Positions 6,870 through 36,318 of a stretch of 39,225 bases of DNA are shown here, in pieces. Origin of the DNA: an uncultured Alphaproteobacteria bacterium (GTDB taxonomy: Bacteria; Pseudomonadota; Alphaproteobacteria; CAAGCB01; CAG-977); the NCBI GenBank assembly GCA_944391535.1, contig CALXTY010000003.1, forward strand, positions 1 to 39,225. The letters run 5' to 3'. Positions within the stretch are counted from its first letter, which is position 1. Each line of letters starts with the position of its first letter. Under the pieces are notes generated by a model. It was not told the origin of the DNA, did not search any database, and saw nothing but the letters and a program-made list of their open reading frames with translations. A program made the position numbers and the translations under genes.

Positions 6870-6959
6870 TTTACCCTTCTTTTTGTTAATGAAATCCAAA
6901 TGAATTTAAAATAGAATACCTAAAATTATGGAAAAAAAACATTAAGAAAGTAATCTTTC

Positions 6960-11141: not shown

Positions 11142-11984
11142 CTATTCTAAAAAAAGTTCCACCGAAGAGTCCGTTTCCTGCATATCCGTCATATCCGGTG
11201 GCGTTAAAATAATTGTTCCCGACACTGAAGAAGGTTTTAATCGAACAGGTGGCATCAAATCAATCGTCTGAACGGATTCGGACAATGGTTCGACATTAAA
11301 TCGATCCGTTTGGTCTTGTCCGGGAGGAATCAAAATAATTCTATCGGTCTTTTCTTGCGCGTCATTTCGGTTGTCTTTTTCCGGTTCGACACTTCCCTCA
11401 ACATTTATAGATTGAAGCGGAACAGAAAAAACTGCGACAGAGCGTTTGACCGATGGCTGACGCAACCGATCCGTTTTTCGAGCGTCTTTTTCTTCATTTA
11501 TGCCGACGACTTCGATTTCTTGTGTTTTTTCCGTTTTCGGCGCAATAATTTCTGCCAGCATTTCTTCTTCAGACACCGTCAACAGCTGATCTTTTTCTTT
11601 CAAATCTAACGGACGAACGGTTTGAGCCGGCTTTCTGGTTTCAGAGCTGTAACGCAACCCCGTATCCGGCGCATTCAAACCCTTTCTTAAAGAAATTTTC
11701 TCTTTTGATCCGAAACGTCCGGCTCGTTCATAAAACGTTTGAGGCTTTTCCTTCATGTCCGTTTTCGCTTTTTTTACCGTCACTCCCTCAGAGGGCAATG
11801 ATAACATTTCATCAACCGTCCTTCCCGGTTTGTCATCAGGCGTGACCGGAACCATATCGGGTTCGGGAATATTAAAATCATCTTCATAACCGAAGAGTTC
11901 TTCTTCACTTATAGAAGAACAAGCGCTCAACACCAAAAGCGTTCCAACGAAAAAAACACGCAAAACAGCTGAAGCAACAGTCAT
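11142..11984 (-). CDS. Hypothetical lipoprotein, low complexity
   Basis: Hydrophobic N-terminus ending in lipobox LSAC; charged Pro/Glu/Lys-rich body. Start 11984 or 12008 uncertain. Confidence 0.65.
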   Translation of the reverse strand: MTVASAVLRVFFVGTLLVLSACSSISEEELFGYEDDFNIPEPDMVPVTPDDKPGRTVDEMLSLPSEGVTVKKAKTDMKEKPQTFYERAGRFGSKEKISLRKGLNAPDTGLRYSSETRKPAQTVRPLDLKEKDQLLTVSEEEMLAEIIAPKTEKTQEIEVVGINEEKDARKTDRLRQPSVKRSVAVFSVPLQSINVEGSVEPEKDNRNDAQEKTDRIILIPPGQDQTDRFNVEPLSESVQTIDLMPPVRLKPSSVSGTIILTPPDMTDMQETDSSVELFLE

Positions 11985-12158
11985 AACCACTCCTCGGGAA
12001 ACAAACATTTTTTTCTGCTAGGATATTACAGGCACAAAAAAAAAATCGCAAGAAAGACTTTGAACGCTTTTTTTCAGAAAAGAAAAAAAATAAAAATTAA
12101 TAAAAAAAATTACAAAGAATGAGTTGATAAAAGATGCATGGACAAATTAGACAAATTA

Positions 12159-13549: not shown

Positions 13550-13584
13550 TAAAAAAACAGCCCGAAAAACGGGCTGTTTTTTTA
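13550..13584. terminator. Bidirectional intrinsic terminator
   Basis: Perfect inverted repeat TAAAAAAACAGCCCG-AAAAA-CGGGCTGTTTTTTTA between convergent genes; U-tract on either strand. Confidence 0.9.
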
Positions 13585-14547
13585 TTGAGCCGCTGACGTA
13601 CTCATCTGTCCGGTCTGAACAAAGGGAGCCGACGCAACAAGATCTTGCGCGGGAACATATTCCAAAGGCGGCTCGTCAGTATGTTTATCAACCCATATCT
13701 TAATATATTTATGAATCAATTTTTCCACTTCCGCCTTGTTTTTAAAACGTTCATTAAATTTTTCAGCGAAAACGTCCTTATATTGACGACAGTCCGACAT
13801 CTTTGAAAAAGCCATAAAATATTTTATATGACGAATAACTTTATTCCCAAAATGCAGTTTGTCTTTGATCTTAAAGCGCTTAGCTTCAGCGTCGGCCGCA
13901 TAGGGACTGGTAATCATAAAATCTGCCTCTCCGGACAACAACATTCGAAAAGCCGTTTCGGGACCATCCACAACATCTAATTTCGTATCCGTCGGCAAAA
14001 TACCTCTGATCAAGGATTCCACTTCTTCCTCTCGGCGAACAACCCCTTTGAGACCTTTAAGTTCAGAAGGATCCTGCACATCTATTTTCTTCGTGTTGCG
14101 TGAAACAACAATAAACGGATTCCCAAAATACGCCGGATAAATATAATCCTGTCCTGACTTGCTTTCATCAATGTAATAACTGGTAAATAACAAATCCGCT
14201 TTTCCATGTAACATCGATTTCTGAGCGTCTTTAAAATCATCGAAAAATAAATCTTTCGTCCATATGATATTGATATCTTTCAAAGACTGTTTCAACGGAT
14301 CCAAAATAAATCCCTGATATTTGAAAACTTCGATATTTCTTTCCGCGAACAGTTCCTCATCACGTTCCACCCATGAAAAAGGCGGATAGTTTTTAAAACC
14401 GACAATAATAAAAGAATCCGACATACCATTCGCCCCGCAATTTTCGGTCGGATACGGATTGTTCTTTTTCATACTTGCCGCTGAAACCGATCCCGCAAAA
14501 ATAAAAAAAGCAAACATTGCCATCATAATCGCGTATGTTTTTTTCAT
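13582..14547 (-). CDS. Periplasmic substrate-binding protein (amino-acid/SBP family 3-like)
   Basis: Signal peptide; NYPPFSW, LHGKADL, ELKGLKG, FRMLLSGEADF, YFMAFSK; RBS AAGGAG. Confidence 0.72.
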   Translation of the reverse strand: MKKTYAIMMAMFAFFIFAGSVSAASMKKNNPYPTENCGANGMSDSFIIVGFKNYPPFSWVERDEELFAERNIEVFKYQGFILDPLKQSLKDINIIWTKDLFFDDFKDAQKSMLHGKADLLFTSYYIDESKSGQDYIYPAYFGNPFIVVSRNTKKIDVQDPSELKGLKGVVRREEEVESLIRGILPTDTKLDVVDGPETAFRMLLSGEADFMITSPYAADAEAKRFKIKDKLHFGNKVIRHIKYFMAFSKMSDCRQYKDVFAEKFNERFKNKAEVEKLIHKYIKIWVDKHTDEPPLEYVPAQDLVASAPFVQTGQMSTSAAQ

Positions 14548-17001: not shown

Positions 17002-17979
17002 TTAAGTTACTTCTGTAACGGCACGAATGTTTCCTTGACGGTTAATCTGCACGACACGTAACTTATCGTGCATTTCAGCGATTGTTTTTTCCCGATCAAT
17101 CGTCGGATAACAATGCAAAATACGATCTGTAAAAGCCTTATAAGCCGCTTCGGAATTTTCGGCATGAATTGTCGCAAAACAGTTATCGTGTCCGGATCCC
17201 ATCAGTTCCCATAACGCTCCGGCATTCGCCGTCGAAATTTCACCGCCGATAATGGCATCCGGCGTAAAACGGACAACCAAGTCGATCAATTTGGGATATG
17301 TCATTGTATTGGTTTGTTCCGTTCGCGATAAAACCAAATGGACATGATTGGGATGAGGCACAATCAATTCGCGCGTATCTTCGATCGTAATCACACGTTT
17401 ATGAGAATCCAAAATAGTTAACAAATTGTTTAAAAAAGTCGTCTTACCGGTTGCCGTTGCCCCTGAAACCAAAATATGATCCCCCCGTTTAATTGATAAA
17501 ATCAACCGTTCATAGGGATCTTCCGGATTTTCGATTTCTTTTAATTTATTGAGCTTTTGCAAACGTTCTCCGGATTTTAAGCCATAATCGCCCAAACCGA
17601 ATTTTACATCGTCAGAATGAACACGGACACACATTGCTATACCGCCAGTCAGATCTTCATTGTCGTACATCACGTTTTTACCCGCAATCCCGGTAAAACG
17701 GTGATCTCCCGGCAAAGTCGCATAAACAGCTGGAGACCCTTGTTCCGGATCAAACGGCAATTCAAACGTGTTCGCAATGATATGCATTATATCCGTCAAA
17801 TACGTTCTTGACAGATTGGTGTCCTGTTGACACGCCCAGGGATGGGCTCTACGTCCGCGTAAACGCAGCCAAATTTCATTTGGACGATTGATTGCGACTT
17901 CTTCCACATTATCCTGTTCATACCAATACGACAAATAACGCAATGTCGATTTTAAAACCTGAAAAGAATCCGTACTCAT
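17002..17979 (-). CDS. virB11: Type IV secretion ATPase VirB11
   Basis: EEVAINRP, Walker A GATATGKTT, Asp box TIEDTREL, Walker B PDAIIGGE, His box SGH...TIHA; directly downstream of virB10; RBS AAGGAG. Confidence 0.85.
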   Translation of the reverse strand: MSTDSFQVLKSTLRYLSYWYEQDNVEEVAINRPNEIWLRLRGRRAHPWACQQDTNLSRTYLTDIMHIIANTFELPFDPEQGSPAVYATLPGDHRFTGIAGKNVMYDNEDLTGGIAMCVRVHSDDVKFGLGDYGLKSGERLQKLNKLKEIENPEDPYERLILSIKRGDHILVSGATATGKTTFLNNLLTILDSHKRVITIEDTRELIVPHPNHVHLVLSRTEQTNTMTYPKLIDLVVRFTPDAIIGGEISTANAGALWELMGSGHDNCFATIHAENSEAAYKAFTDRILHCYPTIDREKTIAEMHDKLRVVQINRQGNIRAVTEVT

Positions 17980-17997
17980 GTTTACTCCTTTGACCGT

Positions 17998-20900
17998 TTA
18001 GAAAAGCTCTGGAACAGGATCTTCCGGTTCTTCCTGCTTTTCGACAACAACAGGCTGAACAATCTGTGGCTGAACCTTGTCTTTATTCGGATCAATCAAC
18101 TGTTTAGGTCTTTGAGGTTGCTGACCTGCGTAGTTATTATAATAAATTTGTTGTTGTTGTTGCAAATTATTCGGATCATTCGGATTGGTTTGCATATTCT
18201 GAGCATTCGGATCTCCGGTTGTCGTTCCGGAAGAACCGCCGGAATTTTCCGATTCGATATTTTCTTTTTTATTTTTATCCGGATCAATCAAAACGTCTTT
18301 CTTTCTTGATGATGAGTCCTCATCATCATCTTCCAAAGCACTACGCAACCATAAATCCGAATTTGCAAACACGGTAATGCGCGTTCCGGAAGGAACGAAC
18401 AATCGAGTCTTTAACTGCGTCGTTTCTGCAAGAATGCCGTCAAAAACCTGTTGCATCGTATCAGAAAATCTTGTTCGAGCATCTTCAGCCGCCTGTTGTC
18501 TTCCGGTCATAGCGACTTCGCCTTCAGCGCCGACCTCCGCGGAATCGTTTGATGCCATCGCATACAAAATGGCAGAAGTAATCGTTGATTGAACGAACGG
18601 CAATCCGTACTTCTTCATCAACTGTCTGTCCATATACGCGCTCACCCCCGCTCGACCGGACGCATCGCCGGAAACGCCTTCTTCAAACTGGAATGCCGCT
18701 CCGTCCGGACGAATTAAACGCGTCCATTTGATTTCCACCTTAGAAGCCGATCCGACTTCTTCACCGGCTGACGAACCGCTTAATTCACCGATCACACGAC
18801 TGCCTGCCGGAATGATGATTTTTCGACCCGATTCCGAATATATGTTACGTTCAACTATTGCTGAAATCGGCAAATCGGGTTGTTCCGTATCAATCGAACG
18901 AACCAATACCGCAGGAATGGCTTTATCCGCCAAAATCATATTATCCATGTTGACACGATATGAAGAAACATTCTTCAACACACCCAAATCCGCCCAGCTT
19001 TTACTGCGCTTTTGTTTCTTCATCAAATCTTCTTCCGTTGACGAAACACCGATGCCCATGCCGGGACGAATCTGACGGCGATACGCCATCTGCAAGGCTC
19101 GCAATTGCTTAATTCTGGCGGGATCGTAACGTTCTCCCTGACCTGTCCCGCCACCGCTTCCCAAGGATTTCCCCCTATATCGATAACTGTCCGGATCAAA
19201 TGTGCCAAAAACTGAAACACGGTCTTTTGTATCAGTTTTTTCAGACGCTTGAACTGTTGTCGGCTCTGTCATTGAACCGATAATATTGCCGTCCAAATCA
19301 ACAACATTACCGTTTTCATCAACTCGACCGATGATATTACCGTTTTCATCGACAACCGTACCGTCCGGCATAATCATTCCTATGCGCTGCCCGTTTTTAC
19401 CAAAAGCAAAACGCTTCGCCTGAAGCTTATCATTCATCGCCGTCAGCTTCCCGCCGCGCCATGTCCCCAAAACGGTGCCGTCAGCGTCCACAATTTCTCC
19501 GTTCGCATTGATCCGGCCAATCATTTTTCCGTCCAAATCGACGACTCGACCGTCCGGCATAATGATCCCCACAATATTTCCCTGTTCGTCACGCATCGGT
19601 TCTCCTTCAATCACAGAACCGATCACATTGCCGTTCATATCTACGACCGTTCCGTCCGGCAATACCCGACCGACCACATTCCCGTTAGCATCTCGAACCA
19701 AGCCGTCTTCACCGACAACACCCAAAAATTTACCGTCACGCCCGACAGCAATACGAACATTTTTTGCCTCAACAGGCGGCCCGGCTCGACCGATAACTTT
19801 CCCGGTCGCATCAACAATTGTCCCGTCGGGCTGTACTCTTCCGATTACATTGCCTTTAAAATCAACAACCGTTCCGTCCGGCAATACCCGACCGATCACA
19901 TTGCCGTTCGCATCATAGGCCAAACGCTCGGGCGGCCCCGCCCGACCGATCACATTGCCGTTTGCATCAACGACCGTACCGTCCGGCAACATTTTGCCGA
20001 TCACATTGCCCTTTAAATCAACAACTGTTCCGTCCGGCAGAACTCTTCCGATCACGTTGCCGTTTGCATCGTAGACCAAACGGTCTTCCCCTGCTTTTGT
20101 CAGGAAATTTCCTTTTGAATCGACAATACCGTCTTCTTGCAAAGCCCGGCCGATAATGTTGCCGTTCATATCGACAACGGTACCGTCCGGCAACATTCTG
20201 CCAATGATATTGCCATTTTCATCACGCAAATATCCGTCTGCGTCAACAATGCCCAAAAATTTACCGTCGGGACTAAATACGGCTCCTTTCGGATAAGCTT
20301 TCCCTATCACATTACCGTCTAAATCGACAACCGTACCATCCGGCAACACTCGACCGATTATGTTGCCGTTTGCATCACGAATAAAACCGTCCGCACCAAC
20401 AACACCCAAAGGTTTACCGTCAGGACCATAAACCATTCTCCCGATCAATCCTTTAGGGAACAAAGAACCGTCGTCATTCGTGCTGATTAATGAAATCATA
20501 CATAAATGCGTCCCCGCATTGCTTAACGCCTGACCACTGGCCAACAGTCGTCCTAAAACCTGCTTACGATCGTCAACAATCGTTCCATCAAAATGAACCG
20601 TTCCAACAACGTTGTTTTTACCGTCCTTACATTCTTCTCCAAGCGGCACAACCCGACCTAAAAACTTGCGATTGCTCGTCAAAACACGCATCGAAGAAGT
20701 AACATAACCGACTTCCCGACCATTGTCGTTATAAACGTTTCCTCGTGGTAATACCGTCCCCACAATTTGACCGTCCGTCGCGATTACACGACGCCCCGAA
20801 GGAACCAACACGCCTAATTTTTTATTATTCGTGTCCGTTAAATCCTGACCGTTCAACATACCGACAAAAGAACCGCCTTGGGGATTGACGCCGTATGCCC

Positions 20901-23900
20901 CCCCTAAAATATGAGCAATGACACTGCCTTGATCATCAACGGCATATTTCATGTCGGAAGCAACGCCGATTATTTTTTGCCCTTTATCAACAACCGCGCC
21001 GTTAACCGTAAAACATCCTAAAACATCGCCTTGCGATCCTAAAGCTTCTCCATTGGACACGATTTTCCCGATCATTTGATCATCAGGACCTTTGACCTGT
21101 CCTTTTTGAACAACGCGTCCCAAGCGTTTGCCGTTTTTATCTTTGACCAAACCTTCAAAATCGACACAACCGATTTGTTCCCCTTGATTGTTGACGGCTT
21201 TTCCTTGCGCCGTCATTTGACCGATGATATTGCACGGCTCATTGATTATGCTTTCCTGTCCTAACGCCAAACCGATCTGAGAATTCCCCGAATTGATCAA
21301 TGAACGATCGTAATTCAAACGACCAATCTGCCGTCCCGTCGGATCAATTACGTTCCCCGCATCGTCAATCGCGCCTAATGTTTGACATTGCAAACCAATC
21401 GGAACGGCATTTACAACGCCTTTTCCGATAACGATATCGTTCCCGTCCGTAATGGTGTCATCTGCTTGTAAAGTCCCCAAGGATTCCTCAGAACCGACTT
21501 GCCTGACCTGTCCGGAAGAATCAATCTTTCCTATGATTTCATTTTTAAAGTTCAATCCCAGACCGTCTTTTACGGTATAGCCCGCGATCTTTGATCCCAA
21601 AGCCGTCACCGTACCGTCGGACTGAAGACGACCAATCACATTGCCTTTCAAATCAACAACCGTGCCGTCAGCTAAAACACGGCCGATTAAATTACCGTTT
21701 TCATCATATACCAATTGTTCCGGAGATCCCGCCCGACCAATTACATTGCCGTTTAAATCCACAACCGTCCCGTCCGGTAACATTTTACCGATGACATTGC
21801 CGTTTAAATCAACAACCGTCCCGTCAGGCAACACACGACCGATCACGTTGCCGTTTTCATCATACACCAAACGTTCCAACGACTCTCCGACTTTCCCGAT
21901 CTGCTTGCCGCTGTCTTCCACAACGGAACCGCCGGCTCTGTAACGCAAAGGTTTACCGTCGGATCCTAAAACAGGATTTCCGTCTTTATCCACAATCTGT
22001 CCGTCAATGCCGACATAACCTATAATCTTACCGTCAGGACCGATAATTGGCTGACCGACAGGAATAACTTCCCCTATAACACGACCGTTTTTATCGACAA
22101 CCCTACCGTTTAAATCCGCCTTGCCGATAACGCGTCCCGAAGCGTCAACAACCGTCCCGTCAGGCATGACGACACCTAAAATTTCTCCGTTCGGGCCTAT
22201 CACTTGACGCATACCGACAAAAATTTTACCAACAACGCGCCCTTCTTTATTAATAATTTCTCCGGACGGCATTTTTAAACGCCCCAAATAACGGCTGAGA
22301 AGATCTAGAGCCGTCCCGTCAGGCAACAAACGTCCGATCTTTTCACTGGTTTTTATATCCAGCACGTCCGCTTTGCGCGGAATGATCCCTCCGAAAATAT
22401 TATCCCCTTCTTTAATAAATCCGCTAAGCGTTACGGATCCGATAAATTCCGTCCCTTGCAGATTCATCGCTTTGGCAATGGAATCACCTCTGGCATAAAG
22501 ATGCGTCTTGTCATTGACGGCGATTCCTTCGGGCAAAGCCGCTCCTAAAAATTTGTTCCCCGCATCAACAAATAAAGAATCCGGACGTAAACACCCGATT
22601 TTTTCTCCGGCAGGATTCAATAATGCCCCGTCCAAATTCACAGAACCCAAATACATATCTTTCGCGCTGATGGCTCTGTTCGCGTAAGCAACACGCCCGA
22701 CAAATTCTCCGTTTTCTTTCGTTAAAGAATCGTCATTTTGAATAAAAGCCGTCCGATTGAATCCGTCATCAACAACACGCCCGTCAATCAAAATTCGACC
22801 GACTGTCTCACACGCCCCTTTTAATGCCTTGCCCTTGTAAGGAGCCACTCTGGCAACCGTTTGTCCGGTCAAATCAATGACACTACCGTCAGGCATCACT
22901 TTCCCGACCGTGCTGTTTTTTCCATTTGACACCGATCCGTCCGGCATTACCCAACCGATCGTACGACCGCTGCGATCCAGCACCCCGCCAAACGGCATTA
23001 ACATACCGACAGCTTCGTTCTTTGAATTGATGACAAGACCGTCCGGATCCATACAACCTAATATTTTTCCTTGCTTATCCTGAACCTTTCCCGCAGAATC
23101 CATTACGCCGACAACTCGACCGTCACCATTTAAAGCGACACCGAAATCCAGTATCCTGCCCAGAACAACCTTTTGATTATCCAAAATTTCGCCGTTAGCC
23201 GCCAAACAACCGACCATTTCTCCTCTGGTCGTAACGACTTCGCCATCCAAGTTGGCATATCCTAATGACATACACCCGGGACCAACGCCCACATTTTGAC
23301 GAGATAACGCACCTTCAATTTTTCCTTTCGTCGACAAAAATGATTTGTCCGGCAGTATGCGTCCTTTAATCTCACCATTTCCCACAACACTGCCGTCGGG
23401 CATAACACGTCCCACAACACCGCATTGCGTCCCGACAATTGTTCCTTTGGGCAAAACCGCGGCGGTAATTTCTTCCGCGTCATTAACAACCGTACCGTAC
23501 GGCGTTAAACACCCTAAAGGATCCCCTTTAAAACTGACGGGATGCCCTTCTGAATCAACTTTACCGACAATTTTGCCCGCCCAGTCGATTAAAGCGCCTT
23601 CTTCAACATAACCGCCGATCGGATTACCAACCATATCGACAACCGTCATAGACGCTGTCAATCGACCCACTTGACGATTAGAGGACATGACGGAACCGTC
23701 CGTACTGATCCGGCCGATCATTTTACAGCCCGGCCCGATAGCCAAACCTTCTTTAACAACGCGACCGATAATGTTCCCGTCTTTATCAACCACTAAACCG
23801 TTGGGCAGGACGCGACCGATAATATTACCGTCTTTATCTACAACCGTACCATCGGGCATAACGATCCCCAAAGGATTGCCCAAAGCATCGACAACCGTTC

Positions 23901-25014
23901 CCTGCGGGGCGACGGATCCGATAATATTGCCGTTGGCGTCAACAATCGTCCCGTCCGGATTTAAATAGCCGATCACGTTCCCGTTTTCATCGACAACCGT
24001 ACCGTCCGGCATGATCCGTCCAATGGGATTGCCATTTTTATCATACGCTATCCCCGTTCGAACCGCAGATCCGATTACATTCCCGTTTTCATCAACGATT
24101 GTGCCATCCGGCAAAGCGTGACCGATCAGGCGACCGTCTTTATCTACAACACGACCGTCCGCTAAAATTGTTCCAAGAATTTCTCCGTTCGGGCCGATCG
24201 CCAAACGCGTTCCTTCCGCCACACCGATCACATAACCTTGATCATCAACAACCGTTCCGTCTTCGCGCAAAGTACCAATGCGTTTGCCGTCCAAACCGTA
24301 AACAACGCCATTTTCGTCGGCATATCCGATCGGTTTGCCGTCAGGACCTAAAATCACACGACCTTTTTGGCGCAACTGATCCAACATTGTCCCGCCACTG
24401 CCCGGAGCTTCATCACACACGCCGCACATACTGGTATCAATAGCCATGGCGGAAATAGGAACAATCACTTTACGGCCGATACCGCCAAAAGTTTCATCAA
24501 CCCAACGAATGGACAGATTGGATTGAATCGTTCGAGCGGTTTTCGGTTCCCAACGAACGACGACGTTGCAAGTGACGTCTCCGGTCAGAACGATGTCTTT
24601 GCGACACTTGTTCTCCAAAACAAATCCGTCTTCTTGTTTATTCTCAAACTCTATCGACGAAATGCTAATCCGTCCGGAAGACGCCGAAAGTGTCAACGTG
24701 CCTTCCGCCATTGTCCCCAGAACCACCTGATCAAAGCGCATCGTTTCCGGAGACACCACCAAACGAACCGTCGCCGCAGAAGCCGGATCATCACCCAAAT
24801 TGAACGCGTCGGCATTCCCGCCGACAATGCTGCTAGAACTCTCGGCCGAACCTCCAATGGTAACTTCGGCGTCCTTTTTATGTTCTTCTCCCCCGCTCAG
24901 CAGAATAATCACGCCCGTCAAAAACGCTAAAAGAGCGACTATTCCAACAATCAAAAGCATCCTGTTGGATTTCTTTAAATATCTGTCTGATGAGCTGAGT
25001 AATTCTTCGTTCAT
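17998..25014 (-). CDS. virB10: Giant VirB10/TrbI-family T4SS core protein with long repeat region (~2338 aa)
   Basis: N-terminal TM helix (MLLIVGIVALLAFLTGVIILLS). C-terminal TrbI domain at ~18346-18939 (IPAVL..SID, IIIPAGSRVIG, WTRLIRPDG, DASGRAG, VPSGTRITVFANSDL). Lies between virB9 and virB11; ATG 25014 overlaps the virB9 TGA. Confidence 0.88.
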   Translation of the reverse strand: MNEELLSSSDRYLKKSNRMLLIVGIVALLAFLTGVIILLSGGEEHKKDAEVTIGGSAESSSSIVGGNADAFNLGDDPASAATVRLVVSPETMRFDQVVLGTMAEGTLTLSASSGRISISSIEFENKQEDGFVLENKCRKDIVLTGDVTCNVVVRWEPKTARTIQSNLSIRWVDETFGGIGRKVIVPISAMAIDTSMCGVCDEAPGSGGTMLDQLRQKGRVILGPDGKPIGYADENGVVYGLDGKRIGTLREDGTVVDDQGYVIGVAEGTRLAIGPNGEILGTILADGRVVDKDGRLIGHALPDGTIVDENGNVIGSAVRTGIAYDKNGNPIGRIMPDGTVVDENGNVIGYLNPDGTIVDANGNIIGSVAPQGTVVDALGNPLGIVMPDGTVVDKDGNIIGRVLPNGLVVDKDGNIIGRVVKEGLAIGPGCKMIGRISTDGSVMSSNRQVGRLTASMTVVDMVGNPIGGYVEEGALIDWAGKIVGKVDSEGHPVSFKGDPLGCLTPYGTVVNDAEEITAAVLPKGTIVGTQCGVVGRVMPDGSVVGNGEIKGRILPDKSFLSTKGKIEGALSRQNVGVGPGCMSLGYANLDGEVVTTRGEMVGCLAANGEILDNQKVVLGRILDFGVALNGDGRVVGVMDSAGKVQDKQGKILGCMDPDGLVINSKNEAVGMLMPFGGVLDRSGRTIGWVMPDGSVSNGKNSTVGKVMPDGSVIDLTGQTVARVAPYKGKALKGACETVGRILIDGRVVDDGFNRTAFIQNDDSLTKENGEFVGRVAYANRAISAKDMYLGSVNLDGALLNPAGEKIGCLRPDSLFVDAGNKFLGAALPEGIAVNDKTHLYARGDSIAKAMNLQGTEFIGSVTLSGFIKEGDNIFGGIIPRKADVLDIKTSEKIGRLLPDGTALDLLSRYLGRLKMPSGEIINKEGRVVGKIFVGMRQVIGPNGEILGVVMPDGTVVDASGRVIGKADLNGRVVDKNGRVIGEVIPVGQPIIGPDGKIIGYVGIDGQIVDKDGNPVLGSDGKPLRYRAGGSVVEDSGKQIGKVGESLERLVYDENGNVIGRVLPDGTVVDLNGNVIGKMLPDGTVVDLNGNVIGRAGSPEQLVYDENGNLIGRVLADGTVVDLKGNVIGRLQSDGTVTALGSKIAGYTVKDGLGLNFKNEIIGKIDSSGQVRQVGSEESLGTLQADDTITDGNDIVIGKGVVNAVPIGLQCQTLGAIDDAGNVIDPTGRQIGRLNYDRSLINSGNSQIGLALGQESIINEPCNIIGQMTAQGKAVNNQGEQIGCVDFEGLVKDKNGKRLGRVVQKGQVKGPDDQMIGKIVSNGEALGSQGDVLGCFTVNGAVVDKGQKIIGVASDMKYAVDDQGSVIAHILGGAYGVNPQGGSFVGMLNGQDLTDTNNKKLGVLVPSGRRVIATDGQIVGTVLPRGNVYNDNGREVGYVTSSMRVLTSNRKFLGRVVPLGEECKDGKNNVVGTVHFDGTIVDDRKQVLGRLLASGQALSNAGTHLCMISLISTNDDGSLFPKGLIGRMVYGPDGKPLGVVGADGFIRDANGNIIGRVLPDGTVVDLDGNVIGKAYPKGAVFSPDGKFLGIVDADGYLRDENGNIIGRMLPDGTVVDMNGNIIGRALQEDGIVDSKGNFLTKAGEDRLVYDANGNVIGRVLPDGTVVDLKGNVIGKMLPDGTVVDANGNVIGRAGPPERLAYDANGNVIGRVLPDGTVVDFKGNVIGRVQPDGTIVDATGKVIGRAGPPVEAKNVRIAVGRDGKFLGVVGEDGLVRDANGNVVGRVLPDGTVVDMNGNVIGSVIEGEPMRDEQGNIVGIIMPDGRVVDLDGKMIGRINANGEIVDADGTVLGTWRGGKLTAMNDKLQAKRFAFGKNGQRIGMIMPDGTVVDENGNIIGRVDENGNVVDLDGNIIGSMTEPTTVQASEKTDTKDRVSVFGTFDPDSYRYRGKSLGSGGGTGQGERYDPARIKQLRALQMAYRRQIRPGMGIGVSSTEEDLMKKQKRSKSWADLGVLKNVSSYRVNMDNMILADKAIPAVLVRSIDTEQPDLPISAIVERNIYSESGRKIIIPAGSRVIGELSGSSAGEEVGSASKVEIKWTRLIRPDGAAFQFEEGVSGDASGRAGVSAYMDRQLMKKYGLPFVQSTITSAILYAMASNDSAEVGAEGEVAMTGRQQAAEDARTRFSDTMQQVFDGILAETTQLKTRLFVPSGTRITVFANSDLWLRSALEDDDEDSSSRKKDVLIDPDKNKKENIESENSGGSSGTTTGDPNAQNMQTNPNDPNNLQQQQQIYYNNYAGQQPQRPKQLIDPNKDKVQPQIVQPVVVEKQEEPEDPVPELF
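19270..24363 (-). repeat. Intragenic coding repeat array, 17-aa unit (consensus ~DGTVVDxNGNVIGRVLP) in ~51-aa modules
   Basis: Visible in the translation and as recurring ccgatcacattgccg / accgtccgg words in DNA; ~1700 aa, roughly 100 units. Conserved blocks alternate with degenerate Cys-bearing blocks. Confidence 0.92.
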
Positions 25015-26537
25015 TGTGTCCGCACAACCATACAAGTCACACCACGGCGACCTAATTGATTACATAATTTATCCCCCGCCTCGATACTGTCCACGGGACC
25101 GATGCGCAAACGGAATAAATCCCTTGATTCACCTTCGGCAACCGCATCAACGGAATAATACGGCTCGTAAGATCCCAATAGATCTTTGTTCTTACGGGAT
25201 ATGTTATCCCATTTTTGTTCCAAAGGCGCAATTTCTCTGTCCGCTCCTAATTCGACGGCGATTGTTTCTTCAGCTGCGGAACGGTAGCGCTGTCTCATAC
25301 GAGAGGTATTGCCTTGTTCTTGGCGTCCCGAAAATTGAGCAATCTGATTCGCCGACAAAATACCGTTCGGCCCCGCTTGCATCATTAAACTGTTAGCCGC
25401 CCGCATATTGGCATTGTCAGCGTTTGAAGATGCTGACACCGTCGTTCCGTTGTAGCCTCCCGTCGTTATCATCGGCCCCGGAGACCATTGAGGCTGAACG
25501 GAAGGTTCGTATTCAACCCATTCCGTACCAAAAGACGGATCTTTTCTGATCTTCAAACATAAAATCCGTTTCCCGTTACGTAAAACCAAATCTCCGATCC
25601 CTTCAACAACCATCAACCTGCCGTTCGGCCCTCTTGTCCTGAAACCGATCGGCACTTCGGATCCTTGCGACAACAAATTCACAATCGGACGTTCCGTCAT
25701 CGTCAACGCTTTCGGACCGAAATCAATATATGTAAAGATCTCGTCGCGCCACACACGTTCCGGTGCAATTTCCATGTCCGCCGGATTGGGAACAAATACG
25801 TCTATGTCAAAACGCAATTTTTCAGGATCGACTTCAATATCCGCCAACCAGTCTTCCGTCCCGTTCTTTGTCGTCGCTTTTTTGGTTCCTTTAATCGCAC
25901 TGCCAAAACTTCCGCTTGTTAATCCTCCTCCCATTCCGACGGCTCCTGCCGAAAAAGGCGTCTGTCCTGAATCATCGGGAACGAATTTTGCATCGTTGAC
26001 AACAATGTCAACAACAGAGTTTGTAATTCTGTCCGTATTAAAGGTCTCGCTTCTTAAATAAAAGACATATCTGTTACCCGAACGACCGAATACAATCATA
26101 TTCGTGTCCATACCGACCAAATCGACGCTGGCGGCGAAGACCATTAAAGCATTTTGGGCGACTTTCTGAGCCCCGAAAGCGCTTTCGTTACCCAAAAAAA
26201 CGTTTTCGATCAATTCCCACGAAGGAAAATTGATCAACGTATGCATTCCTTCCCTGATCCGAAGAGGCAACACCAAATCCGGCGTCCAATAATATCTGGA
26301 ATAGCCCGGCTTCGATTGACCTTCTCCAAGATGTTCCATCGGCTTGTTCCAAGCTTTTTGTTGCATTCCCAAAGACCAAAACGGCATATCGATTTCGGAA
26401 TACTGCCCGTTCGATTGTTCTATCGCCGCGTCCATGGATTCACGCGCGGCCGTCTGTTGAGCCACAACCGACTGCGTTAAAAAGCAAAGCGATACAAAAA
26501 CAAATGCAAAAAGGCGATTACTTAAACTTCTTTTCAC
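25011..26537 (-). CDS. virB9: VirB9/TrbG-family T4SS core protein fused to a C-terminal SPOR domain
   Basis: Signal peptide; DTNMIVFGRSGNRYVFYL, IAPERVWRDEIFTYIDF, LVLRNGKRILCL (VirB9-like). C-terminal IAVELGA...FRLRIGP...AGDKLCNQLGRRGVTCMVV (SPOR). GTG start after AGAAGG. Confidence 0.85.
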   Translation of the reverse strand: MKRSLSNRLFAFVFVSLCFLTQSVVAQQTAARESMDAAIEQSNGQYSEIDMPFWSLGMQQKAWNKPMEHLGEGQSKPGYSRYYWTPDLVLPLRIREGMHTLINFPSWELIENVFLGNESAFGAQKVAQNALMVFAASVDLVGMDTNMIVFGRSGNRYVFYLRSETFNTDRITNSVVDIVVNDAKFVPDDSGQTPFSAGAVGMGGGLTSGSFGSAIKGTKKATTKNGTEDWLADIEVDPEKLRFDIDVFVPNPADMEIAPERVWRDEIFTYIDFGPKALTMTERPIVNLLSQGSEVPIGFRTRGPNGRLMVVEGIGDLVLRNGKRILCLKIRKDPSFGTEWVEYEPSVQPQWSPGPMITTGGYNGTTVSASSNADNANMRAANSLMMQAGPNGILSANQIAQFSGRQEQGNTSRMRQRYRSAAEETIAVELGADREIAPLEQKWDNISRKNKDLLGSYEPYYSVDAVAEGESRDLFRLRIGPVDSIEAGDKLCNQLGRRGVTCMVVRTQ

Positions 26538-26549
26538 GGGACACCTTCT

Positions 26550-27317
26550 TTACTCGTTAGCACTTTCGATTGAATAGCCGTCAACAGCAAAACCCAAAGG
26601 ATTCTTCAATCGATTAATATATTTAACTTCTTTTTGATCCTTGGCAAAATATTTGATCGACAAACGTATTCGCCAACGCGAAACCGCCGGTTCTTCTGCT
26701 TCGGGCAACATATCTCTGGTCACAATGTAAACCAACCAAATATTTTGGTTGCGAACAACGGATTCAATCCGGACTTCTCTGGTCAAACCTTCCAGTTTAA
26801 TTCGAGACAACCAATCTTTGACCGTCTTGCTAAACTGGTTGTATACCTGAGCGGAAGACATCCAACGCAAAGGACCGTCCGTCCCCCAACGAAACGACAT
26901 TTCATCAACATCGGATATCATCGTGTTGCGCAAAAGAACGTATTGGCGAATCATCGCTTCGGAAATAATATCCTCAGCCGCCATATCTTTCGCCAAAGGG
27001 CGAATTTTCACGACTTGTTCCTCTCTGTTCTGAAATGTCAGCAAAAAAGGTTCCACTCGTTTCAACGGCATCATATGAGAGATCGCCAAAAGTAAAACCA
27101 AGTTCACGCACAACGCCACCGCAGACACGATCGCAAAAGCACGCGCCGTCCACAAATAACGCCGTTCCCGCAGCTGATCGACAGACACCTCTTCGCTTAT
27201 GTTTTCAACAAACGAAGGCTTCTTTAAAGAGCTTTTCTGAATTTCATCTTCTTTGACAGATCCGGTTCCATGCTCTTTCACAGTCAACTGCTGTCTTGAT
27301 TTCACAGGTCTTGGCAT
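26550..27317 (-). CDS. virB8: VirB8-family T4SS protein (downstream paralog)
   Basis: Single TM helix then MPLKRVEPFLL, EAMIRQYVLLR, RLKNPLGFAVDGY (NPxG motif). Confidence 0.87.
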   Translation of the reverse strand: MPRPVKSRQQLTVKEHGTGSVKEDEIQKSSLKKPSFVENISEEVSVDQLRERRYLWTARAFAIVSAVALCVNLVLLLAISHMMPLKRVEPFLLTFQNREEQVVKIRPLAKDMAAEDIISEAMIRQYVLLRNTMISDVDEMSFRWGTDGPLRWMSSAQVYNQFSKTVKDWLSRIKLEGLTREVRIESVVRNQNIWLVYIVTRDMLPEAEEPAVSRWRIRLSIKYFAKDQKEVKYINRLKNPLGFAVDGYSIESANE

Positions 27318-27330
27318 AGTCTTTTTCCTG

Positions 27331-27525
27331 TTATCCTTGAGCTGTCACCATTATCCAATCCGGCAAATCCGCCGGCAATTTTAAGAGCATACAAGCGCAC
27401 GGAGAACGCTTCAGCTCTGAAATATCCCGACCGATACCGACCGGTTCCTTTTCATAAATGGAGCCGCACGCATTTAAAAAAGCACATAAAATAATCATCA
27501 AAGCCATCGTCCGGATTTTTTTCAT
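27331..27525 (-). CDS. virB7: Small lipoprotein, VirB7-like
   Basis: 64 aa, lipobox FLNAC, extra cysteines in ELKRSPCAC, located between two virB8 genes; RBS AAGGAG. Confidence 0.7.
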   Translation of the reverse strand: MKKIRTMALMIILCAFLNACGSIYEKEPVGIGRDISELKRSPCACMLLKLPADLPDWIMVTAQG

Positions 27526-27545
27526 GATCGCTTTCTCCTTAAAAT

Positions 27546-28250
27546 CTATTTCTTTTGCCGAGCCAAATGATATTGGGTCACCGTAAATCCCAACGGATTG
27601 CGCAAACGGGAAAACATAACGGCATTATCCGCATAGTATCGAAACTGAATGGTCGCAATCCAATGTTCTATCACCGGAGTACTGACCGAAGTTTCCATCT
27701 TTCGCGTATCAAAAAATATCTGCCAACTGTTCCAGCCTTCTTTGATAATCCGTTTAATATCCGTTTCCACCATCACGGTCGGAGCCCGCTCCAAATCAGG
27801 AAAATATCGCCCTCGTTCACGTTCCACGAATGCCTCATACACCGCCGGAGACGACATATAACGCACAACGCCTCCCGGACCGATCATACGCCGCATTTCC
27901 GGCGCATTCCGCCAAATATTATTTCTGGCCGTCACATATTGGCGCACAAACATTTCAGCCAACACATCCATCGCCGGCATATCCGGATGCAACGGTTCAA
28001 AATAACTTAAGTTCTCCGAATACGTCGGAGCAGTCACCAACACCGGAAAAACATCCGCTTCTTTACTGATATGAATTAAAGACAACGCCAAAACAGCAAC
28101 CGACGTCATCAAAAAAAAGCATATAAAAGCAAAAATTCGCGACAACCACATAAACGTGGTGATACGTTTACCGTCCGCCGGCGGCATTCCCAAAGTCGCA
28201 GCTTTCTTGATATTTTCGCGAACAGACGCATTTGACATACTTTTTTCCAT
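27546..28250 (-). CDS. virB8: VirB8-family T4SS protein (upstream paralog)
   Basis: Single TM helix, EMFVRQYVTAR, VRYMSSPAVY, RLRNPLGFTVTQY (NPxG motif). Confidence 0.82.
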   Translation of the reverse strand: MEKSMSNASVRENIKKAATLGMPPADGKRITTFMWLSRIFAFICFFLMTSVAVLALSLIHISKEADVFPVLVTAPTYSENLSYFEPLHPDMPAMDVLAEMFVRQYVTARNNIWRNAPEMRRMIGPGGVVRYMSSPAVYEAFVERERGRYFPDLERAPTVMVETDIKRIIKEGWNSWQIFFDTRKMETSVSTPVIEHWIATIQFRYYADNAVMFSRLRNPLGFTVTQYHLARQKK

Positions 28251-28310
28251 TCTTTAATACTGCCTCTATTTCGTTAAAAATACCTTTCCGAATATTATAA
28301 TGTAAAGAAA

Positions 28311-28344
28311 TAAAACAAAAAGAGAGCCTGTCAACGGCTCTCTT
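28311..28344 (-). terminator. Intrinsic terminator after the esterase gene, upstream of the virB locus
   Basis: Stem AAGAGAGCC/GGCTCTCTT (28320-28328, 28336-28344), 7-nt loop containing the stop codon, followed on the minus strand by TTTGTTTT. Confidence 0.65.
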
Positions 28345-29056
28345 CCCTTTCAGAAAAGCTATTCCTTAAAGCGTCGCATAAGTATTGTAACGCCGTTTCG
28401 TCTATCCCGTGCATTAAATATGGGACAATATGACTGTCCACCGCCAAACCGGCCGATTGCAGATTGCTTTTATTCAACTCGAAAACTGTTAACGGAACAA
28501 CGTTGTCAGCATCTCCGTGAATCAAGGTGACAGGCGGCTTTGAAACGATCTTATCAGGAGAAAACGTCTGACCGTCGTACATCACCGCAACCGCCGACAT
28601 TCCGACACTGATTGCAAGTTTTTCAGAAAAACGCAACGCCGTATAAACCGCCATCAACCCGCCCTGAGAAAAACCGCAAAGAGCCGCTTTGTCGGCAGAA
28701 ACGCCACTGTGTTCCAAAACAGCGCGCATATAAGGATCAGTGACACCGCGCGCAATTTCCGCCAATGGCATTAACGAGGTCAAATATCTTTGCGCCGCCG
28801 CGCTGTCGGACAGCAATAAAGGATTATAATCATTCAAAGAAAACCACTGATAACCGCCGAAAAAACCCATTTCTTCCGGCGCATCGGGGAAATAAAAAGC
28901 AGCCTTTGGAAAAAAACGACGTAAAACGGAACTGATATTAAACAGATCCTGACCGTCCGCTCCGTACCCGTGAAAAAAAACGGCCGCCTGTTCCGTTTCG
29001 CCTTCCGGCAATAAAGCGTAAGTGCGCAAAGGCAAATCCGTTAAAATCTGTTTCAT
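28331..29056 (-). CDS. Phospholipase/carboxylesterase (alpha/beta hydrolase)
   Basis: FHGYGADG, FPDAP, GFSQGG nucleophile elbow, IHGDADNVVP, HGI. Confidence 0.88.
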   Translation of the reverse strand: MKQILTDLPLRTYALLPEGETEQAAVFFHGYGADGQDLFNISSVLRRFFPKAAFYFPDAPEEMGFFGGYQWFSLNDYNPLLLSDSAAAQRYLTSLMPLAEIARGVTDPYMRAVLEHSGVSADKAALCGFSQGGLMAVYTALRFSEKLAISVGMSAVAVMYDGQTFSPDKIVSKPPVTLIHGDADNVVPLTVFELNKSNLQSAGLAVDSHIVPYLMHGIDETALQYLCDALRNSFSEREESR

Positions 29057-34875: not shown

Positions 34876-35307
34876 ATGCGTTTTTTTTTATTGTTTCTGA
34901 TATTCCTCTCAAGCTCTTTTAACGCCTTTGCCCAATCAAGCAAAGACACGGAAAATATCGGTACGCTGGCCGGCGTCGTTTTAGCTTGCGGCGCTTACCG
35001 TCAACTCTATCAATTCGAAGAAATCCTCAGTCGATACTTTAGCAATACTGCTCCGAACCAAGCGGCCGAAGACGCCTCTTTGCGTCTGTATGCATCGGCA
35101 AAGGCCAACAGTTATGTCCTTCAACGCAATAAAAAAAACAAACGCGATTGTCCGCAAACAATCGCCGATTTTTCAAAAATGGACATCTTTAATTTCGAAC
35201 TTTATTCTGACGGATCCATAAAAACGCCCGACGGAAAATTCATCTTTCCCCGCGGTCAAAATAAGTTAGCTGCCGGCGCTCAAAGAACTTATCCGAAAAA
35301 CCGCTGA
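34876..35307 (+). CDS. Hypothetical exported protein
   Basis: Signal peptide ending AFA; two Cys; fills the gap between flanking genes. Confidence 0.7.
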   Translation: MRFFLLFLIFLSSSFNAFAQSSKDTENIGTLAGVVLACGAYRQLYQFEEILSRYFSNTAPNQAAEDASLRLYASAKANSYVLQRNKKNKRDCPQTIADFSKMDIFNFELYSDGSIKTPDGKFIFPRGQNKLAAGAQRTYPKNR

Positions 35308-35316
35308 GCAATATAT

Positions 35317-36318
35317 TTATTCTTTCTCGGGAATATTGATTAAATCCGCATTCTGCATCAAACTCAGCGGCGGATATATGCCGATTTTCTGAGCCGCCGT
35401 CATGTTCACCACCAACAAAGCGCGCTGTGGAGATTCTATCGGAATGTCATAAGCCTGAATTTTATCTTTTAACATTTTAAACGCTTTTCTTCCTGCCATC
35501 TGTCCGACCGTATAATAGCGATGAACAAAAGCGAACAAAGCGTTGTCATGTCTGACAGCTCCTTCTGAAGCCGAAAAAACGGGAATTGAAAAAGCTGTCG
35601 CCGCATCTATCAAAATCTTTCGATTGGTATTCATAAAAGCATCCGGCCCCAAATAAATCAAATCCGTTTTCGCTTCGGCCAATTCCGAAACCAGTCCGGT
35701 AATCGTTTTCGCGTCCGGTTTTTTCTTTTTATTTAAAGGAACGGGTTTTTCCAAAAGATCGAAATTCATTAAAGAAGCATAATGTTTCAGCTGTTGAACG
35801 GCGATTTGCGCGTTTGTCTCCGTAGGATTATAAATTATCCCCAATCGTTTGAAGGGAATAATTTGCCTTGCGTATTGCAATTGATCCGACAAAGCGACCA
35901 AATGCATGACCCCCGTAATATTGCGACCTTGTGAAACCAGTGAAGAAACAAGCCCGCTTTCAACCGGCTGAGACACAACCATAAACAAAGCCGGAACGGC
36001 TCCGTATTTCGAAACAGGGCCATTGTTTTCCGTCCCCAACATTTCCAATGTCGCCAAAGTCCCCCATGTCACCAACAAATCCGGTGAAGTTTCTTTCACC
36101 TCTTCAATTAAAGCGGATATTTGATCCGTCTTTTTATCCAGGTTTCTCTGAACGATCTCGACATTTAAACGAGATGACTTTAAATAATCCAAAAAACCGC
36201 GACAAGCGTCTTCGCAACCGTTCCATAAAACCATATATACTTTTAACGGCGAAGCGGCTTCGGCGAATAAAAAAGGAAACAAGAAAAAAAACAAAAACAC
36301 ACTAAAAAATTTTTTCAC
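35317..36318 (-). CDS. ABC-type substrate-binding protein (ABC_sub_bind family)
   Basis: Signal peptide; PDLLVTWGT, PVESGLVSSL...RNITG, LGIIYNPTE, VNMTAAQKIG. Likely GTG start at 36318. Confidence 0.85.
   Translation of the reverse strand: MKKFFSVFLFFFLFPFLFAEAASPLKVYMVLWNGCEDACRGFLDYLKSSRLNVEIVQRNLDKKTDQISALIEEVKETSPDLLVTWGTLATLEMLGTENNGPVSKYGAVPALFMVVSQPVESGLVSSLVSQGRNITGVMHLVALSDQLQYARQIIPFKRLGIIYNPTETNAQIAVQQLKHYASLMNFDLLEKPVPLNKKKKPDAKTITGLVSELAEAKTDLIYLGPDAFMNTNRKILIDAATAFSIPVFSASEGAVRHDNALFAFVHRYYTVGQMAGRKAFKMLKDKIQAYDIPIESPQRALLVVNMTAAQKIGIYPPLSLMQNADLINIPEKE

Follow-up and report, generated by a model that had tools for sequence, protein, structure and literature searches.

The 39,225-nt contig CALXTY010000003.1 of an uncultured alphaproteobacterium (GenBank assembly GCA_944391535.1) carries on its minus strand, at 17002-28250, six co-oriented type IV secretion system (T4SS) genes in the order virB8-virB7-virB8-virB9-virB10-virB11, spaced by 12-20 nt or overlapping, and its VirB10 is a giant protein in which ~1,700 residues of repeated beta-hairpins sit between the membrane anchor and the TrbI domain. 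We consider the locus to be probably one of several islets that together form a complete P-type T4SS, chromosomal, inherited vertically, with a remodelled core, typical of several families of gut, rumen, and termite-gut Alphaproteobacteria (genomes of ~1.1-2.5 Mb) and used for protein delivery. The window is that whole stretch of 39,225 nt and makes up the entire contig C3 of a metagenome-assembled genome (MAG; here G000) of 1.92 Mb in 197 contigs (88.8% complete, GC content 44.6%); other contigs of the same MAG are labelled C5, C19, C29, C41, C87, and C90. That six tightly packed, co-oriented T4SS genes lie here between housekeeping genes had been claimed in an earlier reading of the DNA letters alone (the sequence-only reading), and it was borne out at these coordinates by Pfam and by the sequences of the open reading frames (ORFs). 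The genes, the parts of virB10, and the region 5′ of the first gene are the following.

27546-28250, minus strand: virB8a, 234 aa (PF04335, E = 2.4e-16), the upstream VirB8 paralog, evolving faster
27331-27525, minus strand: VirB7-like lipoprotein, 64 aa, with a signal peptide and lipobox LNAC, at the VirB7 position
26550-27317, minus strand: virB8b, 255 aa (PF04335, E = 3.4e-22), the downstream VirB8 paralog, better conserved
25011-26537, minus strand: virB9, 508 aa, with CagX (E = 7.4e-14; DNA 25554-26297), a linker of ~130 aa, and a C-terminal SPOR domain (DNA 25020-25154)
17998-25014, minus strand: giant virB10, 2,338 aa from its ATG (TrbI, E = 1.7e-31; Bflower_2, E = 1.5e-132)
24430-24783, minus strand: beta-rich domain of virB10 after the transmembrane helix, possibly Ig-like (ASH/Cep192-type), a weak assignment
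19240-24369, minus strand: beta-flower array in virB10, residues ~216-1925, with an estimated ~100 hairpin units of 17 aa
18346-18936, minus strand: TrbI/VirB10 C-terminal domain, the predicted outer-membrane core part (PF03743, E = 1.7e-31, profile positions 2-188 of 188)
17002-17979, minus strand: virB11 ATPase gene, 325 aa (T2SSE, E = 1.1e-20)
28277-28347, minus strand: intergenic region 5′ of virB8a, with a terminator-like hairpin for the hydrolase gene and then a promoter-like site

The virB10 frame starts at an ATG at 25014 that overlaps the virB9 stop codon (ATGA), and the N-terminus so defined (MNEELLSS) is conserved in relatives. A basic tail of 18 residues is followed by one transmembrane helix (residues ~19-39), a beta-rich part (~78-195), the repeats (~216-1925), a complete TrbI domain (~2027-2223), and a tail of 100 residues rich in Q, N, and P. 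Over 18 stretches of the protein the repeats matched Bflower_2 (PF21785), scoring 434.3 bits where the cut-off is 38, and all 19 Bflower_2 matches of the genome fall in the virB10 ORF. Furthermore, the array matched DUF3659 (E = 1.6e-49), the four-fold beta-flower family and, weakly, RHS repeats. The commonest repeat spacing is 17 aa, which accounts for 38 of the 67 intervals between GxxhG motifs, and the units contain DG and NG turns. Tandem Repeats Finder returned a period of 51 nt in four arrays with 67-81% matches, i.e., the repeats have diverged at the DNA level. On this periodicity we would put the array at roughly 100 hairpins, or ~20 five-petal modules.

Modelled by AlphaFold2 from a 20-sequence orthologue alignment, residues 216-560 form beta-hairpins only (predicted local distance difference test, pLDDT, 84.8; predicted template modelling score 0.68), and a single-sequence model of residues 60-520 was poor (pLDDT 51). 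Foldseek found no global match to the repeat model in the PDB, only a local likeness of hairpin repeats to Rhs shells, the combined repetitive oligopeptides of toxins, and propellers (TM-score 0.05-0.19). This lack of a counterpart fits the published description of the beta-flower fold, in whose excerpted text the fold has neither a PDB counterpart nor a known function and consists of beta-hairpin petals with a [DNEQ]xxG tip motif in single domains of ~100 residues (PMC10584680). The beta-flower proteins of Durairaj et al. (2023; PF21784/PF21785) are single domains, whereas ~20 modules would be strung together here in a T4SS subunit. No paper among the best-ranked matches of the literature searched brings beta-flower and VirB10 together, and the single DUF3659 paper found there concerns fungal lipid droplets. 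We also considered an Rhs toxin shell and rejected it, since no RHS_repeat stretch passes alone, no toxin domain was found, and the C-terminus is TrbI. The beta-rich domain that precedes the array gave only a sub-threshold match (Cep192_D4, E = 0.049); precomputed annotation places the same Ig-like families on a VirB10 relative of 518 aa in Telmatospirillum siberiense (32% identity in the TrbI part), and BLASTP of the VirB10 N-terminus against this Telmatospirillum ASH-VirB10 was not significant.

The array is as well conserved as the parts that flank it. Identity to the closest relative is 88% in the N-terminal part, 87% in the array, 87.5% in the TrbI part, and 69% in the tail. Larger indels are few across eight comparisons (52, 85, or 104-105 aa, near multiples of 17) and cluster at two places. 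The repeats of CagY in Helicobacter pylori recombine; here the array is conserved like the termini and orthologues align position by position, which argues against recombination-driven variation of the CagY type, and we rejected antigenic variation of the repeats for this reason. The conservation of the array argues instead for a fixed structural role in which each module would have its own position. Twenty-nine loci contain VirB9 as well as VirB11, and in 28 of them virB10 is a single open frame, with 2,037-2,684 codons from stop to stop. In the protein database, matches to the TrbI region include at least 364 proteins of 1,289-4,104 aa, and each of the 120 among the matches listed carries both the beta-flower and the TrbI families.

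The other genes of the locus fit a T4SS core. The VirB7-like protein, for which Pfam and NCBIfam scans gave no family, is 33% identical (E = 6e-10) to a 68-aa ORF at the VirB7 position of an Erythrobacter aureus plasmid operon. In a VirB8 tree the upstream copies of several families form one clade (Shimodaira-Hasegawa-like approximate likelihood ratio test 98) and the downstream, B8b-type copies another (84), with longer branches in the upstream, B8a-type copies; because both clades span families, the duplication around virB7 should be older than the divergence of these families. The SPOR match on VirB9 (PF05036) is marginal, with 24.1 bits against a cut-off of 21 over profile positions 34-76 of 76 only; VirB9 residues ~400-506 also match other SPOR-type ORFs in related genomes, which supports the call. 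The VirB9 of the E. aureus plasmid aligns through the SPOR region to the very end of the window's VirB9, although Pfam calls no SPOR on it. Since a SPOR-like tail is thus also found on a conjugative plasmid VirB9, it predates the chromosomal system and belongs to the T4SS lineage at large rather than to domestication. No paper in the literature searched combines VirB9 with a SPOR domain. VirB11, closest by sequence to Brucella VirB11 among PDB entries (E = 2.7e-15), is present in 23 family-level loci and has an identity of 93.5-99% in 22 of these (in L038, 76%), as against 38-91% for the neighboring T4SS genes; by this comparison it is under unusually strong constraint. The NCBI name of many of these proteins, 'Flp pilus assembly complex ATPase component TadA', is in all appearance a misannotation.

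The remaining components lie on other contigs. C41 holds VirB2 (99 aa; TrbC/VirB2, E = 1.5e-8), a 96-aa ORF with two transmembrane segments at the VirB3 position (26% identical to the VirB3-position ORF of the E. aureus plasmid), and VirB4 (807 aa; PF03135), and these are followed by four secreted proteins of 226-275 aa, one secreted protein of 635 aa, and then the delta subunit of ATP synthase (atpH). C19 holds VirD4 (773 aa; PF02534), two paralogous membrane proteins (347 and 366 aa), and two low-complexity proteins (385 and 402 aa), with three tandem VirB6 paralogs (TrbL/VirB6 and two paralogs; 667, 528, and 487 aa) on the opposite strand. A second VirD4 (744 aa; PF02534) lies between housekeeping genes on C90, directly 3′ of the gene for a 445-aa pentapeptide-repeat protein (L060 1436-5011), and on C5 a third VirB8 (247 aa) stands alone, flanked by RadC and an ABC transporter. 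Each islet is beside housekeeping genes, and at least five contigs carry conserved components. Together, the VirB4 and VirB11 ATPases, VirD4, the VirB7/B9/B10 core, and VirB2/B3/B6/B8 make up the full set of a P-type (VirB/VirD4) T4SS.

Three proteins of these islets deserve mention. Relatives of the 635-aa secreted protein of C41 (L058 8456-10363) stand just 5′ of VirB8-B7-B8 in other families (L053, L066, L067, L069, and L070), and the protein is probably an overlooked T4SS component. The C-terminus of the 385-aa low-complexity protein of C19 is 33% identical over ~80-90 residues to that of the 667-aa VirB6, i.e., the two share a module (L057 9766-10923, 12475-14478). The 445-aa pentapeptide-repeat protein of C90 is a candidate substrate or accessory protein.

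The same genome contains a second, different T4SS. C87 (L059 1253-7991) carries a compact, canonical operon of VirB4 (765 aa), VirB8 (228 aa), VirB9 (303 aa), VirB10 (365 aa), and VirB11, and on C29 the sole PF03432 relaxase match of the genome lies beside a third VirD4; a search of the genome for a TrwC relaxase gave no match. The distribution of the C87-type VirB4 (27-29% identity) is patchy (12 of 28 genomes of the family), as is that of the C29-type VirD4, and the C87 and C29 genes probably belong to a separate conjugative element.

The surroundings of the locus in the window are chromosomal. The flanking genes encode TrkH, an alpha/beta hydrolase, a DEAD-box helicase, RecJ, homoserine dehydrogenase, adenosine deaminase, FlaF, phosphofructokinase, and parts of ABC transporters; TrkH adjoins virB11, and VirD4 is not adjacent. 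The Pfam scan took in 28 window ORFs (8 at E <= 0.01 and 20 at E <= 1e-5; the ORF at 37437-39101 and smaller ones were left out), and as the sequence-only reading had stated there was no integrase, relaxase, or transposase among these 28 and no tRNA in the window. Its remark that composition shows no obvious break also held, since the GC content of the locus (47.1%) is near that of the window (45.4%) and of the genome (44.6%). In the region 5′ of virB8a, a hairpin of 12 pairs with a T-run lies at 28347-28317 and TTTACA-18-TATTTT at 28306-28277; both signals are consensus matches only, with counts there not above those of shuffles. Elsewhere in the window, amid housekeeping genes, there is a strong match to Mito_fiss_Elm1 (PF06258, E = 1.1e-78) at 5886-6899 (minus strand), and five sizeable ORFs have no Pfam family at E <= 1e-5 (6960-8069 and 34876-35307 on the plus strand; 11142-12008, 13582-14547, and 36302-37381 on the minus strand).

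The system is nearly universal in the family of the MAG. Full-length VirB9 with SPOR (65-89% identity) occurs in 23 of the 24 other family genomes, the 24th (89% complete) having a match in the SPOR range only; the C41-type VirB4 (79-97% identity) and the C19-type VirD4 (78-96% identity) each occur in 26 of the 27 others, and the C90-type VirD4 paralog in 28 of 28 including this MAG. The same gene order was found in 35 MAG loci from human, ruminant, horse, primate, and termite gut, titled 'Alphaproteobacteria bacterium', 'uncultured Rhodospirillaceae', or 'Acetobacter sp. CAG:977'. Two other titles, 'Limosilactobacillus gorillae' (L037) and 'uncultured Lactobacillales bacterium' (L053), probably reflect mislabelled bins. 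The DEAD-box helicase gene lies upstream in 24 of the 35 loci and TrkH downstream in the three closest only; VirD4 is found just upstream of the helicase gene in two loci and directly before B7-B8-B9 in a distant termite-gut locus. The presence of VirD4 beside the core genes in some relatives links the islets functionally. We take the clade to belong to the GTDB order RF32; no paper in the literature searched combines RF32 or CAG-239 with type IV secretion.

Distribution across the class was assessed in an even sample of 300 species of Alphaproteobacteria. A VirB11 at least 64% identical to the window's was found in nine families of this sample (genomes of 1.1-2.5 Mb), and a giant or two-piece VirB10 stood beside VirB11 in all eight loci fetched, which came from seven of the nine families (those outside f1 and f3): in five it is a single frame (1,936-2,838 codons), in one it runs into the contig end, and in two it is split in two ORFs. 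The giant VirB10 is present in at least eight families beyond that of the MAG, all with small genomes. In families where VirB11 is only 37-44% identical, VirB10 has 508-579 aa. In two such loci (L072 and L074, from f154 and f21; VirB11 40-44% identical), ~5-10 kb of other genes lie between VirB9 and VirB11, with ORFs of ~610-620, 410, and 290 aa that in L072 precede a VirB10 of normal length. Two near-complete genomes of f77 (G103 and G271; 0.9 Mb in 5-7 contigs) encode a VirB11 that shares 56-57% identity with the window's; no VirB10 adjoins it in the part of G103 that was fetched (L071), and VirB8 genes lie elsewhere in both genomes. The f77 lineage may have undergone reduction and have yet another dispersed system. 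In the database as a whole, 1,272 relatives of VirB11 were found at E <= 1e-10.

These results agree with the sequence-only reading in that the system is chromosomal and vertically inherited, as seen from synteny, near-universal presence in the family, and a VirB10 kept as one frame. It had proposed to follow the locus through MAGs, and the order recurring in 35 MAG loci with VirB9 in 23 of 24 family genomes is what was found; an ICE (integrative and conjugative element) or plasmid of patchy distribution, which it had named as the outcome that would speak against it, did not emerge, given the housekeeping flanks and the near-universal presence in the family. By the same evidence it is extremely improbable that a conjugative ICE or plasmid serving DNA transfer was simply captured in the assembly. 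The lineage does include plasmid operons with a MobA/MobL relaxase, and VirD4 coupling proteins are present; against this, the locus shares its contig with housekeeping genes on either side, an arrangement that independent MAGs repeat, identities track relatedness, GC break, tRNA, and (among the scanned ORFs) integrase and relaxase are all missing, and the only relaxase match of the genome sits with a different, patchy T4SS. We regard the conjugative-element reading as largely refuted. The T4SS gene set is under purifying selection.

Gene content, domains, conservation, and distribution were observed directly, and from them, together with the established VirB/D4 architecture, we infer topology, assembly, substrate, and target as follows. 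The system would descend from the same T4SS lineage as the compact conjugative VirB/D4 operons on alphaproteobacterial megaplasmids. It would have lost its linkage to a relaxase and dispersed to at least five chromosomal places (the B8-B11 locus, B2-B3-B4, VirD4 with three VirB6, the second VirD4, and the lone VirB8), and VirB8 would have been duplicated around virB7 before the families diverged. VirB7, VirB9, and the TrbI domain of VirB10 would build the outer-membrane core, which the SPOR domain of VirB9, of a peptidoglycan-binding type, may tie to the glycan strands of the cell wall. With the VirB10 helix in the inner membrane and its short tail in the cytoplasm, the array would lie in the periplasm, and the arrays multiplied by the copy number of the core would form a very large, fixed, position-specific periplasmic scaffold rather than a variable surface. 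VirB4, VirB11, and the two VirD4 coupling proteins would energise the machine and select its substrates, most probably proteins delivered to another cell rather than conjugative DNA. Because no relaxase accompanies the system and a separate conjugative T4SS is present, its function is most likely protein translocation, with proteins passed to another cell, be it a bacterium, a protist, or an animal cell. Cell-wall anchoring and a role in host or cell-cell interaction, both put forward in the sequence-only reading, are likewise inferred.

Several observations weigh against this picture. The VirB10 frame is broken in one locus (L030) and forms two ORFs in two families. One genome of 97% completeness (G043) has neither the C41-type VirB4 nor the C19-type VirD4, so that the system is either not universal or unassembled there. 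None of the four secreted proteins of 226-275 aa after VirB4 gave a Pfam or NCBIfam match, VirB5 (PF07996) included, and no effector was found. The islets are on separate contigs of a 197-contig MAG, which does not give their true distances, and in some relatives VirD4 is within 10 kb of the locus. The periplasmic location of the array, finally, is suggested by the N-terminal helix and by analogy with canonical VirB10, and by these only.

The cell to which proteins are delivered may be a neighboring bacterium, killed or parasitised as by the X-T4SS of Xanthomonadales, rather than a eukaryotic host, which we hold to be possible though somewhat unlikely. Carriers live in dense gut and rumen communities, and there was no match to the ATP/ADP translocase (TLC) typical of intracellular energy parasites in this MAG or in any of the nine giant-VirB10 families of the sample; the translocase is present in 38 of 301 genomes of the class. 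Moreover, killing of bacteria has been proposed as an ancestral role of related systems (Schoen et al., PMC9352585, in the excerpted text). On the other hand, the VirB7 of X-T4SSs is described in the excerpted text of PMC3093366 as having an extra C-terminal N0 domain, and the VirB7-like protein here has only 64 aa; a search for the XVIPCD effector domain, run with no positive control, gave no match in the genome, and no toxin-immunity pairs were found.

A non-translocating use, i.e., adhesion or pilus display as in Bartonella Trw, or DNA uptake or release as in ComB, appears very unlikely to us. The four small secreted proteins at the usual place of VirB5 do recall the multiplied pilus-tip genes of Trw (PMC4676284, as excerpted). 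The huge VirB10 could also be a structural or adhesive device in itself; set against this is the conservation of VirB11 and of two VirD4 paralogs throughout the family. Trw systems are not known to have a VirD4, and ComB systems are known to have neither VirD4 nor VirB11. Trw, the system to which this one would be likened, is furthermore described in the excerpted text as not involved in protein translocation (PMC4676284), and protein delivery remains our preferred reading of the present system.

The significance of the system lies in where it is found and in what it contains. Its carriers are widespread, uncultured inhabitants of the human, ruminant, horse, and termite gut, and since more than 1% of a 2-Mb genome is given over to a conserved T4SS, contact with another cell would seem central to their life. 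The giant VirB10 places a fold of no known function in a machine of known architecture, which turns the beta-flower into a concrete structural question. Genome surveys based on names would miss the system, as public annotation calls its proteins 'hypothetical', 'DUF3659 domain-containing', or 'Flp pilus assembly ATPase TadA'. A bolder view would see in the array a third independent enlargement of VirB10 after CagY and DotG, forming a megadalton periplasmic scaffold in an organelle that defines the lifestyle of a large, globally common clade of cell-attached gut and rumen Alphaproteobacteria; given the rvh-like B8-B7-B8 order, islets, and VirB6 expansion, this clade would stand for the long-sought type of donor lineage behind the rvh system of Rickettsiales. 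We consider this view decidedly unlikely as a whole; if it were true, the computationally discovered beta-flower fold would have its first cellular role. Owing to the resemblance to rvh, a tree with these genomes in it could also put the origin of the Rickettsiales secretion system to the test.

Among known systems, the nearest named relatives by sequence identity are plasmid operons of E. aureus, Microvirga, and Sphingosinicella. In tblastn searches against plasmids, the best VirB4 and VirB11 matches were on Microvirga, Sphingosinicella, and Erythrobacter megaplasmids (36-40%), followed by Candidatus Paracaedimonas plasmids. Of 20 representatives of the nearest VirB4 relatives, 7 are named, with 'Alphaproteobacteria bacterium' (2 clusters) and one Sphingorhabdus MAG as the sole organism labels, and a protein atlas returned generic VirB4 clusters only. 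The megaplasmid of E. aureus YH-07 (NZ_CP031358.1) carries MobA/MobL and, in order, B2-B3-B4-VirB5 (PF07996)-453 aa-68 aa-B8-B9 (432 aa)-B10 (529 aa)-B11-D4, with identities to our proteins of 36% (B4), 40% (B11), 34% (D4), 32% (B9), and 33% (B10 C-terminal domain). In contrast to the system studied here, it is a compact single operon with a relaxase, a recognisable VirB5, one VirB8, and a repeat-free VirB10. Relative to the plasmid form, the chromosomal system would have lost its relaxase linkage, had its genes scattered, multiplied VirB8, VirB6, and VirD4, and received the array, so that 'domesticated', the word used in the sequence-only reading, is a fair one. Its claim of a remodelled core and of domestication thus stands, except that the SPOR tail of VirB9 is not part of the domestication.

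The rvh system of Rickettsiales resembles ours in layout. In Rickettsia typhi the order is rvhB8-II, rvhB7, rvhB8-I, rvhB9-II, rvhB10, rvhB11, and then rvhD4, with RvhB8-II evolving faster (PMC4676284, as excerpted), and rvh is described as an archipelago of islets with five VirB6 (PMC2653234, in the part consulted). The two systems have in common the order B8-B7-B8-B9-B10-B11, a faster evolution of the upstream VirB8, islets on the chromosome, several large VirB6 proteins, vertical inheritance, and the lack of a linked relaxase. They differ in that our VirB10 is five times larger and contains the array, that VirB9 has SPOR, that VirB4 and VirB9 are not duplicated, that VirD4 is duplicated and not 3′ of B11 in the window, and that the carriers live in the gut, have flagellar genes, and lack the ATP/ADP translocase. 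Five complete small genomes that carry the translocase had no VirB8 or VirB11 match, which says nothing about rvh itself.

That the system is a member or a sister lineage of rvh, with order, islets, and VirB6 expansion taken from a common ancestor, strikes us as unlikely; it concerns ancestry only and is compatible with a protein-delivering chromosomal T4SS. The gene order agrees up to B11, the upstream B8a-type copies have the longer branches just as RvhB8-II is the faster copy, and the genes are dispersed to at least five places with three tandem VirB6 against five in Rickettsia. The excerpted text of Schoen et al. (PMC9352585), furthermore, has rvh acquired from an unidentified proteobacterial donor. 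However, rvh duplicates both VirB4 and VirB9, and here there is one conserved copy of each, the second copies belonging to the C87 system. Sequence matches of both VirB8 in the PDB were Brucella and Bartonella VirB8 and TrwG, and neither matched R. typhi RvhB8-II there (E <= 0.01; that this chain is in the PDB is taken solely from the excerpted PMC4676284). The nearest named relatives, moreover, are the alphaproteobacterial megaplasmid T4SSs, which have a single VirB8. A P-type T4SS variant with a ~100-hairpin VirB10, a SPOR-bearing VirB9, and scattered genes is not described in the literature searched. The earlier suggestion of an undescribed combination of features therefore holds for the combination; the architecture as such has a precedent, since rvh, going by the excerpted sources above, shares order and islets. 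The likeness is one of gene order and layout and may reflect either homology or convergence.

CagY of H. pylori and DotG of Legionella have a VirB10/TrbI C-terminal domain after long repeats behind an N-terminal anchor, and they mark enlarged T4SSs. The giant VirB10 shares this plan, with long repeats (residues ~216-1925) between a membrane anchor and the VirB10 domain (TrbI, ~2027-2223). It differs from both in the type of repeat, which is a 17-aa beta-hairpin (Bflower_2, DUF3659, and RHS-like) with no pentapeptide family found in it, and from CagY in that the repeats keep their positions between species while having diverged from one another in DNA (67-81% matches).

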